A stretch of 64,000 nucleotides of DNA from Promethearchaeota archaeon (lineage in GTDB: Archaea > Asgardarchaeota > Lokiarchaeia > Sigyniarchaeales > SOKP01). Shown here one piece after another: positions 30,996 to 46,564 of this stretch. The stretch is taken from assembly GCA_048940445.1 (NCBI GenBank), contig JBHLON010000003.1:32001-96000 (forward strand), read 5' to 3'. Positions within the stretch are counted from its first letter, which is position 1; each line of letters begins with the position of its first letter. Made by a program: the position numbers and the translations under genes. The notes below the pieces were generated by a model. The model was not told the DNA's origin, ran no database searches, and saw only the letters and a program-made list of their open reading frames with translations.

Positions 30996-32777
30996 ATGAG
31001 CAACTTAATAATTAAAAATGGATTTGTATATGACCCGCTCAATAAAATCGACGGCGAAAAGAAAGATATCTACATTAAAGATGGACTCATTGCCGAAAAA
31101 GTTAATACCGACGCAAAAGTAATCGATGCTTCTGGAATGGTAGTGATGCCGGGTGGTGTTGATATGCATACCCACATCGCTGGACCCAAAGTCAACATTG
31201 GACGAGCTCTACGACCCGAAGATAAAGTCCCTGAATCAAACCTAAAGAAAACTAAGACTACACGATCTGGAACAGGTTTTAGCGTGCTCAGTACATGGTA
31301 TACCGGTTATAAGTACGCCCAAATGGGCTATACTACAGCTGTTGAACCTGCAATGCCACTTCTCGAAGCTCGACACACCCATGAAGAATTCCTTGAAATT
31401 CCAATCATCGATAAAGCTGCCTTACCCATATACGGAAATAATTGGTTCGTCCTGAAATATATACGCGACAATGATATTGATAAACTCACTGCTTACGTGA
31501 ATTGGATACTCCAAGCAACCAAAGGATATGCCATTAAAATCGTAAATCCCGGAGGGGTAGAAAACTGGGCATGGGGAAATGTGTGGCTTTTTATAGTCTG
31601 CACCCTAGAAAATTGTGAAAGTTTAGATGACCTAGTTTTCCATTGGAGCGTAACGCCTCGAAAGATTATTGAAAGTTTGGCAAAGGTTGCTGAGATTTTG
31701 AAACTGCCACATTCAATCCATGTTCATTGTAATAATTTAGGGCATCCAGGAAACTTCAAGCATTCCCTTGAGACATTTAAAGTTTGCGAGAGCATAAAAG
31801 CTAATAATGGTCGAAAAACAAGTCTTCATGTAACCCATTGTCAATTTAATGCATACGGTGGTACAAATTGGAATGATTTCACCTCTGGAGCCGGTGAGAT
31901 TGCCGAATACGTAAATGCACATAAGCATCTTACCATTGATTGCGGTCAAGTAGTATTTACTAAATATGCAACCACTACGATGACTGGAGACGGACCATGG
32001 GTCACAGATGAGTATCTTGTCTGTGCATGAAAGTTCGCGCTCCATCATTTAGGTGGGTATTCCAGCTGGGGTTCAAAGCCAGGCATTAAGTGGGTCAACG
32101 GGCAAGTAGAGGCAGAGTCAGGTTCGGGTATCGTGCCCTATTTTTTTGATCCTAAAAATAGTGTGAATGCGGTTCAATGGGCGATAGGTCTGGAGTTGAT
32201 GCTTCTGATAAAGGATCCGTTTCAAATTGGCTTTTCCACTGATCATCCAAACGGAGCGCCCTTTACCACTTATCCGATGGCGTTCAAATGGTTGATGGAT
32301 CGAAAAAGTCGAGACGAGATGCTCAAGAATTCGGTCCATAAGAAGGCAAGTACAGCATCGACTTTATCTGATCTTGATAGAGAATTATCGCTCTACGAGC
32401 TTGCAATTGTCACACGAGCCGGTACTTCGAAGATTCTTGGGATGAGGGATCGCGGTCATCTGGGTGTGGGAGCTCTTGGAGACGTTTCGGTATATAAATT
32501 AAACCCAAATAACTATACGGGACATGATATTGAGAAGGCGTTTAGTTCGACAGCATACACAATTAAAGAAGGCACAATCGTGGTAAAGGATGGGGAAATC
32601 ACGGCAGCTCCAATGGGAACTTTACTGCGTGCTGAAGGCACACTAAAGGAGAATCTTATGGAGGAGATGCTTGATGACGTGCGCCATAGCTGGAGAGACC
32701 ATTATAGCATAAACTTCAATAACTATGCGGTTCAGGATGCTTACGCACCAAAAGAGAAAGTATTCAGAGGAAATTAA
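30996..32777 (+). CDS. fwdA: Formylmethanofuran dehydrogenase subunit A, interrupted by two 30-nt BHB introns; join(30996..31578,31609..32001,32032..32777) = 573 aa
   Basis: PGGVDMHTH, GYTTAVEPAMP, IKIVNPGG, HSIHVHCNNLG, HVTHCQF, STDHPNG. Both track ORFs (30996-32030 and 32133-32777) are in the same frame, separated by one TGA inside the second insertion. Confidence 0.93.
31579..31608 (+). other. Candidate mRNA intron 1 (30 nt, relaxed BHB/HBh')
   Basis: GGGG-AA^A-TGTG(T)GGCT-loop-AGTCTGCA-CCCT-AG^A; excision converts WG-NVWLFIVCTLE-NCES to WGKNCES. Confidence 0.8.
32002..32031 (+). other. Candidate mRNA intron 2 (30 nt, canonical BHB, contains in-frame TGA)
   Basis: CGGAC-CATG-GG^T-CACAGATGAG-tat-CTTGTCTGTG-CATG-AA^A-GTTCG; excision gives DGPWEFALHHL. 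Confidence 0.92.
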
Positions 32778-32786
32778 TTTTTTCTT

Positions 32787-34607
32787 TTATTTTTTTCTAT
32801 TTAGGAATTCAACTTTATTATTTGTTTTCCAATATCCATTCGGTGGCATCTTAATATTCCATTCGCTTCTTAATTTGTGAAATGTACTTTTTGATGTAGA
32901 AAAGCGATCAACCAATTCATAATTACGATATTGATATACTAGATCTTGAAGCTCTTGTTTATTGATACCCAAGTTTTTAAGTTTCATCTTTAAGTTTTCA
33001 AATGCTACACGTGATTCCGAAAAATGTTTATCTTTTCTTTCTAATACTTTAATGTTTGATTTTTTACATAGATTTGTCATTTTATTAAAATATTTTGCCC
33101 CAACAAATAAAGAATATTGAGCTTGTTGCAAGTGTATCTTTCCACTTTTATCTTTATAGTATTTTGATTCAATAGTTCTTAAAATTGAATTATCTACATT
33201 CAATGCATGTTTCATTCTAACTAAGAATTGTTTGGAGGTAGAACAGATACGGGTAGTTCCACTAAATCCATCTCCATCATAATAACCTCGGATATAACCC
33301 ATTAATAATTCTTTTTTTGAATTCATATTAACTCCTTTTGGAATATCTTGTTTATAAAATTTTGGTAGTGATTTTCTTTTTGCCTTTGAAGAGCTGAAAC
33401 CTTGTAATTCCAGATCTTTAGCAATTTTATTATTTACAAAATTTAAATAAGCGTAATTATGGGATTTTCCCGTTTTATAATGATTTCTGGTTCTATATCT
33501 GATACGATTTTTATCTATTCCTATGTCTTGACATAATCTTTTTATTAGGACATCATCTTTTTTTGATAATTCTATGAAGATAACTTTCTTAGGAGTTTTT
33601 CTTTTGGTTTTAATTCCATTTTTGTAATAATGTTTCTTAGTCATAACACTTCCATCAGCCATCAAAAATCCGAGCCAATAAGCTTTTTGAAGAGTATTGA
33701 TTTTGTTAAAATAGTTTATTTTCAAGTTGGGTTTATGCAAGTGCCATTGTTGGCAAGACTTATCTTTTAAGTCAGTATGGTGGCTAACATAACTGTTAAT
33801 ATGATTAACAAGGTTTTTAGCTTTCTCATTTGGAAAGTTAGATTGTATATTTTTTATGAATCTATTCAGAATTTCTTTAGAGAATTTATATATTGGATTA
33901 TATAGTTTAGAATTTGGATTAAATCTTGGCATTATAGCTTGTTGGATGTAATCATATCCTTTCTTGCTGTTGATGTCATAAATATATTTGCTTAATTTCC
34001 AGTAAGATAATTCATCACGGTATTTTTCGTTTGGGACGAGTTTTCCGACTTCTTTTCGTAGTTTTTCGACGAGCCATAAGGTTGAGTACTTGGGGAGTAT
34101 ATTTCCTTGTTTATCTTTTATGATATCGTTATTATGTTGTTTTGTAGAGGAGGGTTGTTTTATTTCATTATTTTTGGAGAATTTTTTATAGAGAAGGGCA
34201 TCTTTGGGGTTAATAATTTTATTTTTTGATTTAATATTGTTGGTTAGCTGTGGTGGTTGGATTTTGTTGAAACTTGGATGTTTAAGTTCGGATTTGTTCT
34301 TGGAAGGTTTGTTGGGAGAGATTAAGATTCCTTTGGGTATTTTTAGTTTGGGGATACCTTTTGGATCAAGCCCCCAGCATTTGGGAGGTGGGGATATATC
34401 ATTAATTTTGGGGTTGAGAATATCTTCTGGTGAGACTATTCTTGGATCAAGAATTTTGTTGTACTGAGGCGTGGTATAAGAACCAGATGGGTATTTAGGA
34501 TGAGTTATTTTATTATGGGGGGTGTCTTCCTCCTGGATTTCAGGGTTGTGGAGTTCTTCTTTGATATCTTTTTTCGGGGATTGTGATTTACATTTACATT
34601 TTTCCAT
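32787..34607 (-). CDS. Free-standing two-motif LAGLIDADG homing-endonuclease-family protein
   Basis: AYWLGFLMADGSV and GYIRGYYDGDGF motifs; Pro/Lys/Asn-rich N-terminus; C-terminal HTH-like ...WNIKMPPNGYW. Confidence 0.85.
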   Translation of the reverse strand: MEKCKCKSQSPKKDIKEELHNPEIQEEDTPHNKITHPKYPSGSYTTPQYNKILDPRIVSPEDILNPKINDISPPPKCWGLDPKGIPKLKIPKGILISPNKPSKNKSELKHPSFNKIQPPQLTNNIKSKNKIINPKDALLYKKFSKNNEIKQPSSTKQHNNDIIKDKQGNILPKYSTLWLVEKLRKEVGKLVPNEKYRDELSYWKLSKYIYDINSKKGYDYIQQAIMPRFNPNSKLYNPIYKFSKEILNRFIKNIQSNFPNEKAKNLVNHINSYVSHHTDLKDKSCQQWHLHKPNLKINYFNKINTLQKAYWLGFLMADGSVMTKKHYYKNGIKTKRKTPKKVIFIELSKKDDVLIKRLCQDIGIDKNRIRYRTRNHYKTGKSHNYAYLNFVNNKIAKDLELQGFSSSKAKRKSLPKFYKQDIPKGVNMNSKKELLMGYIRGYYDGDGFSGTTRICSTSKQFLVRMKHALNVDNSILRTIESKYYKDKSGKIHLQQAQYSLFVGAKYFNKMTNLCKKSNIKVLERKDKHFSESRVAFENLKMKLKNLGINKQELQDLVYQYRNYELVDRFSTSKSTFHKLRSEWNIKMPPNGYWKTNNKVEFLNRKK

Positions 34608-45772: not shown

Positions 45773-46564
45773 GTGGAAAGATTGAATATTGACCAAATAA
45801 TGGAAGGATACCAAAATGTTGGAGGATTTAAATTATATTTTAAAAGAACTATTAATGGGAGCCCTACTGTGATTTTTGACTCCGGTTTAGGTGATGATAT
45901 AACATCTTGGGAAAAAATCTTTCCTTATATTGCATCTCGAACCTCAGCACTAGTATATGATAGAGCTGGAATTGGCAAGTCAGATTTTAGTTTGTATTCT
46001 CGTAGTGCTGAACAAGTAGCTCAAGAATTACATACTTTATTAAAAGAGTTAAAAATAAATCCTCCTTATATTTTGGTAGGACATTCTCTTGGAGGTTGGC
46101 ATATTCGTGTTTTCGCTGGACTTTATCCTAAAGAAGTATGTGGATTATTACTTATTGATCCGCAAGAGATTAGTTTCTACAAAGAATGGAAACGTATGTA
46201 CCCTAAACATTTTGAATATGAATATCAGACATGGCTTGAATATTTTAATAATTCGCCTCAAGGGGAAAAATTAGAGTGGGAAATATTAAAAAACAGAATT
46301 GAAGCTCCTTCTAACCCTACTCCAACTTTAGTTGATGTACCAACGATTTTAATCACAAGTATACAAAAAGAAGAACTGCCAACTGAAGAAGGATTCAATC
46401 CCGAGATCCGTAAATTAAAATTTGAAATATCCTCAAAATGGATGTCTAGATTAAATAAAGCTACTAATATTCTTAAGGCTGATGTTGGACATTATATTCA
46501 TAAAGAGGATCCCGCCTTAATTCGTAGGCTAATAGATTACTTAATTGATATAAATAGAGAATGA
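45773..46564 (+). CDS. Alpha/beta hydrolase
   Basis: YDRAGIGKS, GHSLGG nucleophile elbow, GHYIH. Confidence 0.92.
   Translation: MERLNIDQIMEGYQNVGGFKLYFKRTINGSPTVIFDSGLGDDITSWEKIFPYIASRTSALVYDRAGIGKSDFSLYSRSAEQVAQELHTLLKELKINPPYILVGHSLGGWHIRVFAGLYPKEVCGLLLIDPQEISFYKEWKRMYPKHFEYEYQTWLEYFNNSPQGEKLEWEILKNRIEAPSNPTPTLVDVPTILITSIQKEELPTEEGFNPEIRKLKFEISSKWMSRLNKATNILKADVGHYIHKEDPALIRRLIDYLIDINRE

Follow-up and report, generated by a model that had tools for sequence, protein, structure and literature searches.

Two predicted bulge-helix-bulge introns in the coding sequence of fwdA in a Promethearchaeota archaeon

The fwdA gene at 30996-32777 (forward strand) of the 64,000-nucleotide stretch of Promethearchaeota DNA analysed here (the window) is interrupted by an in-frame TGA at 32028-32030, beyond which the same frame goes on encoding FwdA. 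Is this a broken gene, or could the stop be removed before translation? In the FwdA model TIGR03121, the ORF starting at 30996 covers positions 2-321 and the frame beyond the TGA covers positions 330-555, so that the two match consecutive parts. As the preliminary description of this DNA expected of gene callers, the locus is split into two listed ORFs. The source assembly (G000) comprises 3.64 Mb with a G+C content of 30% and is 93% complete. Its assignment to the Asgard archaea is upheld, its same-genus relatives G017 and G029 being Promethearchaeota. Only one fwdA was found in this genome. The gene stands without other fwd genes, flanked by a 177-aa membrane-type ORF and a nuclease-like ORF. 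Many relatives carry a second FwdA-like gene, about 30% identical, which was not found in this genome.

Anatomy of the interrupted gene

The TGA lies within a 30-nt segment (32002-32031, forward strand) that had been described as a canonical bulge-helix-bulge (BHB) intron. All parts of that structure are present in the sequence: an outer exon helix (31991-31995/32033-32037) and a central helix (31996-31999/32026-32029), whose 5' strands together occupy 31991-31999, two 3-nt bulges on opposite strands (32000-32002 and 32030-32032) and an inner 10-bp hairpin (32003-32012/32016-32025). The BHB is the minimum-free-energy fold and makes up 61% of the ensemble (z -2.5; equal stability in 2 of 200 shuffles), and the segment ranks first across the 3.6-Mb genome among frame-repairing BHB-shaped segments of up to 60 nt. 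Cutting after the second base of each bulge, the rule of the archaeal splicing endonuclease EndA, removes 32002-32031 and gives DGPWEF. The precise gap that had been proposed as a check is found: intronless FwdA homologues show a clean 30-nt gap exactly at 32002-32031. Homologues do not carry the segment as normal coding sequence either; its 10 residues are unconserved and absent in 110 of 120 homologues. The insert consists of a single hairpin in 30 nt, in contrast to the ribozyme core of a few hundred bases that defines group I and II introns. The unspliced product is, as had been stated, a 344-aa protein without the Asp aligned to D385 of the solved FwdA, presumably a metal ligand; no such product of this fwdA is on record. 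A search of metagenome contigs for the exact spliced-junction pattern gave no match.

The preliminary description recognised this one intron, which stands, and missed a second BHB insert upstream (31579-31608, forward strand). Intron 1, as we call it, is also 30 nt long, in frame and free of stops, and adds ten residues after WAWG to the unspliced translation. Its BHB is of the relaxed type, with a central helix GGGG/CCCT, 3-nt bulges at 31577-31579 and 31607-31609 and a weak exon helix; folded by itself, the local sequence does not reach significance (z -0.3). The cut rule yields WAWGKN, the commonest reading among homologues (119 of 144 proteins), and the insert appears as an exact 30-nt gap against all aligned homologues, coincident with the predicted cuts. 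In genome G099, of another genus, site 1 is occupied by an unrelated insert of 31 nt, which shifts the frame and contains a stop; with the cut rule applied, a frame of 575 aa is recovered. The insert at site 1 is therefore not a protein loop. The alignment gap and the G099 insert are thus what argue for a predicted intron 1. These two mutually unrelated sequences are the only site-1 inserts known; a pattern search of 135 genomes returned the present one and chance matches, and missed the G099 insert, which a protein search found.

The gene is accordingly divided into exon 1 (30996-31578; codons 1-194 and the first base of Lys195, with the HxH and Lys metal-site motifs), exon 2 (31609-32001) and exon 3 (32032-32777, with the STDHPNG motif and, at 32033-32037, a strand of the exon helix), all on the forward strand. 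Excision of both inserts gives a 573-aa FwdA, the usual length in the group, and excision of 32002-32031 alone gives 583 aa. Compared with three relatives, all parts of fwdA have a pN of 0.03-0.11 and a pS of 0.56-0.81, and exon 3 is thus under purifying selection. In codons 326-359, which separate the stop from the following start codon (GTG), pN is 0.025 against a pS of 0.77. Purifying selection on these codons disfavours a restart at that GTG, which would skip them.

The enzymes expected of a host of BHB introns, an EndA with the catalytic Tyr/His/Lys and an RtcB ligase, are encoded in the genome. It has RtcB, on contig C94, and two EndA paralogues, on C3 and C62: an alpha-like subunit, whose closest solved structure is the catalytic subunit of Aeropyrum pernix and in which Tyr, His and Lys are aligned, and a second subunit without the His. 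The hetero-oligomeric type of EndA is the one that cuts the cbf5 intron (PMC2738675).

Recurrence at site 2 and similar inserts in other genes

Two genomes of the same genus, three of another genus and several metagenome contigs have an insert at the identical base of site 2. There are 13 distinct ones, 12 of 30 nt and one of 33 nt, with pairwise identities down to 7/30 (median 17/30). In an ungapped alignment of 12 carriers, 93% of the cells pair and 10 of the 18 pairs have changed on both sides (all nine inner pairs and one central-helix pair), figures that, like those for codon choice below, overstate independence because the carriers are kin. None of 500 shuffles reaches the covariation score, sliding the partner strand lowers pairing to 22-41%, and RNAalifold finds the BHB unprompted. 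All three helices are kept while the insert sequences diverge; at site 2 it is the structure of the BHB introns that is conserved and not the sequence.

The exons take part in this conservation. The covarying central-helix pair is A-U in five carriers, U-A in five and a U-U mismatch in two, so that the third base of a proline codon co-varies with the intron. Glu is encoded by GAG and Gly by GGR in all 14 carriers, compared with 15 of 33 intronless loci for each, the search pattern for the latter being slightly looser; this synonymous choice preserves the exon-exon helix, which has all five pairs in every carrier and in 5 of the 33 intronless loci. In every one of the 14 carriers the insert holds an in-frame stop even though its length is a multiple of three; half of the carriers were found through truncation, and the six found by DNA pattern likewise all have the stop. 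Full-length members of the clusters of truncated homologues were considered as spliced copies and proved to be other alleles (79-90% DNA identity).

Comparison of purA, uL11, a uvrA-like gene and dnaG with same-genus genomes reveals similar inserts elsewhere in this genome. Against intronless relatives, purA has one cleanly delimited insert of 30 nt, uL11 has two (38 and 29 nt) and the uvrA-like gene, a lead from a genome BHB scan, has one of 31 nt. In all three genes the cut rule applies with a four-pair central helix in each insert and restores the conserved peptide, and it is followed equally by the frameshifting inserts of 29, 31 and 38 nt. The purA insert (locus L106, contig C134 ~73770, reverse strand) lies within the WGD motif, shares the GGGG/CCCT central helix of fwdA intron 1, and is common to eight close relatives and absent from seven more distant ones. 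The two uL11 inserts are at C61 ~46000-46150 (L107); the uL11 genes of relatives (L127-L141) have further insert sites in varying combinations. The canonical BHB insert of the uvrA-like gene (L109, C63 31236-31206, reverse strand) recurs in G010 and G002 and is absent from the close relatives G017 and G019. A 37-nt insert in dnaG (L108, C67 4642-4678) also fits the cut rule, and inserts of 34-37 nt occur in all five relatives checked, none of which is intronless. No further copy of either fwdA insert was found in the genome.

A scan for the motif alone cannot count introns genome-wide, since without a codon filter the BHB geometry gives 15 matches and control geometries give 4-11, no clear excess; with the filter, the fwdA intron itself is lost. 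For tRNAs the evidence is suggestive. ARAGORN finds 13 in the genome and others emerge once BHB inserts of 27-33 nt are removed, in a crude search that is partly noise, so introns of about 30 nt are probably common in the tRNAs of this genome. Examples recovered only after such removal are tRNA-Arg(TCG) (C67 30153-30039) and tRNA-Gln(CTG) (C119 ~67159-67127), both on the reverse strand.

Proposed splicing and alternative explanations

We consider it very probable, from sequence comparison, that both fwdA inserts are endonuclease-spliced mRNA introns. In the pre-mRNA a 4-bp helix would form between the 3' end of each intron and exon positions -6 to -3, flanked by two 3-nt bulges; a two-subunit host EndA would cut after the second base of each bulge, and RtcB would join the exons, as in tRNA introns and cbf5. 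Two such events would produce the 573-aa FwdA. The anatomy, the exact gaps, the covariation at recurrent inserts, the selection on exon 3 and the enzyme genes are observed here and, together with the single copy of the gene, they support the earlier proposal of a spliced C1-metabolism gene in an Asgard archaeon; the cutting, the joining and the identity of the enzymes are predicted. Against the intron reading stand the weak exon helix and plain fold of intron 1 and the U-U mismatch in two of the site-2 carriers.

Could the ribosome instead deal with the stop itself, reading through it with selenocysteine or Trp, or jumping across the hairpin in the manner of T4 gene 60 and mitochondrial byps? 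The stop in this genome is TGA, the insert length is a multiple of three, the hairpin is strong and a nuclease-like gene is adjacent, much as T4 gene 60 has a nuclease gene beside it. Other carriers, however, have TAA at another position, there is no conserved UGA at a Cys/Sec column, and the ten residues that read-through would insert are those lacking from nearly all homologues. Bypassing would require matching take-off and landing codons, whereas TGG precedes the insert, TGA or AGA stands at the landing site, and the junction falls within a codon. Recoding has no need of covarying exon-intron and exon-exon helices, and read-through is excluded because the sister inserts shift the frame. We therefore regard translational recoding as very unlikely. 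It is hardly credible, too, that a hairpin-forming insertion broke fwdA and that its halves now decay or yield two proteins. Besides the two listed ORFs, it could be said for this explanation that FwdA may be dispensable in some lineages, the G062 copy, with two stops, being apparently in decay; but purifying selection is strong in every exon and extends to the codons that a restart would pass over, this is the only copy in the genome, and 13 different structure-preserving inserts have settled at one site on scattered branches.

We give next to no weight to removal of the 30 bp at the DNA level, or to a tiny transposon with a target-site duplication, despite the CATG at both ends in this genome and the existence of intronless close relatives. 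CATG is palindromic, and CTTG/CAAG in other carriers identifies the ends as complementary rather than repeated; excision of the segment between repeats would still leave a stop; G-U pairs favour the fold of the sense strand (-21.8 against -17.0); and neither insert has another copy in the genome. The intronless relatives are other alleles, since they differ by 10-20% elsewhere. The chance of an assembly artefact is negligible: the genome is a fragmented metagenome assembly, but inserts of differing sequence occur at the same site in independent NCBI, JGI, ENA and Logan assemblies.

Distribution, the LAGLIDADG-like neighbour and known systems

The predicted fwdA introns are rare and scattered. 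Seven of about 110 family genomes having fwdA carry an insert, and on a tree of 63 rows, hand-thinned around the carriers, intron presence changes 13 times and a single carrier clade is rejected (p-AU 6e-46). The intron can be present in one relative and absent in another whose protein is 97% identical, and near-identical inserts sit on distant branches (L069 versus L076-L079). The suggestion that splicing acts as a regulatory switch finds no support in this distribution. Patchy carrier counts do not separate gain from loss, but are easier to reconcile with lateral spread or repeated gain than with conserved regulation; the introns resemble tolerated passengers, gained and lost at fixed sites.

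Convergent with the 3' end of fwdA is a free-standing LAGLIDADG-like ORF of 606 aa (32787-34607, reverse strand). It matches PF14528 with an E value of 2.7e-4, just under the cut-off, and has both LAGLIDADG motifs, each with its acidic residue, and a low-complexity N-terminal part; among solved structures its sequence finds no counterpart. Of 135 family genomes, 69 have homologues, and four more are present in this one (C78, C119, C49 and C71). A homologue adjoins fwdA in four of the seven carriers (G000, G017 as a fragment, G144 and G099) and in one of about 103 other genomes (G018), a tally cross-read by eye from two surveys of fragmented contigs in which kinship leaves two to three independent events. 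Two of the three carriers without such a neighbour are on short contigs. The G018 gene (L004) is intronless, reads WAWSRN at site 1 and diverges more from its close relatives between about nt 540 and 1020, the stretch between both intron sites. The 606-aa ORF may thus be a candidate homing endonuclease linked to the introns.

Other irregularities were noted around fwdA. The G018 gene appears mosaic, both between the intron sites and towards its 3' end. Several relatives, mostly carriers, have orphan partial fwdA copies, at L085 4066-4527, L197 2744-3001, L203 5685-6362, L204 1315-1962 and L205 2282-2851; the orphan 5' piece in G099 ends at codon 190, four codons short of site 1, and in L085 a 315-aa unknown ORF separates fwdA from its 3' duplicate. 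The orphan fragments of G099, G144 and G112 give no support to an intron-nuclease cassette, no LAGLIDADG homologue being adjacent to them within the stretches inspected. The fwdA of G062 (L201, C164) has no insert and is interrupted by two point stops around codons 170-178; it is likely an ordinary pseudogene or a sequencing error.

A broader proposal can be made tentatively, and we regard it as possible but rather doubtful: that the tRNA machinery is in routine use by Promethearchaeota to splice mRNAs with several introns, and that the fwdA introns spread through a putative LAGLIDADG nuclease cutting intronless alleles near codon 195 or 326. If so, intron and nuclease would travel together in an archaeal chromosomal form of collaborative homing, which would explain repeated gain at fixed sites. 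EndA-type splicing is predicted in one Asgard genome at two fwdA sites and in purA, uL11 and the uvrA-like gene. If this is true, the closest prokaryotic relatives of eukaryotes splice ordinary mRNAs before translation without a spliceosome, which would bear on views of how introns spread and on eukaryotic splicing of mRNA by proteins alone, exemplified by IRE1 and RtcB. For annotation, such genes would be called split or dead, and in-frame introns like intron 1 would escape notice as false protein insertions, in both cases distorting metabolic reconstructions.

The closest known counterpart is the BHB intron that cbf5 carries in Desulfurococcales and Sulfolobales (Watanabe 2002; Yokobori 2009, PMC2738675), whose splicing is confirmed by cDNA, introns in other protein genes being only predicted (PMC2738675). 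In the searchable literature cbf5 alone documents archaeal EndA-type splicing within coding sequence, and fwdA adds a predicted case; our search, which reached few subscription journals, found no paper on Asgard mRNA introns. Common to both systems are a short intron without an ORF in the coding sequence, BHB or relaxed BHB boundaries with cut sites behind the second base of the bulge, a hetero-oligomeric EndA, a phase-1 position in a conserved motif and lineage-specific absence. Unlike cbf5, fwdA is a metabolic gene in another phylum with two introns per mRNA, and several unrelated genes of the same genome have inserts of near-uniform length (29-38 nt). The cbf5 intron reflects one old gain with losses, whereas the fwdA introns are very patchy on the tree, and their splicing is inferred where that of cbf5 is shown by cDNA.

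The 46-nt intron of Haloferax HVO_1309 (Schwarz 2020, PMC7714728) is also a BHB substrate of EndA in an mRNA, but it lies in the 5' UTR, outside the reading frame; according to that paper, cbf5 provides the sole other example in an mRNA. The non-canonical tRNA introns described from Asgard archaea (bioRxiv 10.64898/2026.10.13.758758) share the BHB motif, repeated gains and, in most genomes, a two-paralogue EndA, and for the newly found ones splicing in an Asgard cell is a prediction, as it is for fwdA; that study is restricted to tRNA genes, and the terms 'mRNA' and 'cbf5' are absent from its text. The putative nuclease recalls collaborative homing in phages such as the cyanophage psbA system (reviewed in PMC3984707), in which a free-standing nuclease likewise lies by a conserved gene with an ORF-less intron. 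The phage intron is of group I, whereas fwdA would have a host-spliced 30-nt BHB element beside a putative LAGLIDADG-like nuclease on the chromosome.
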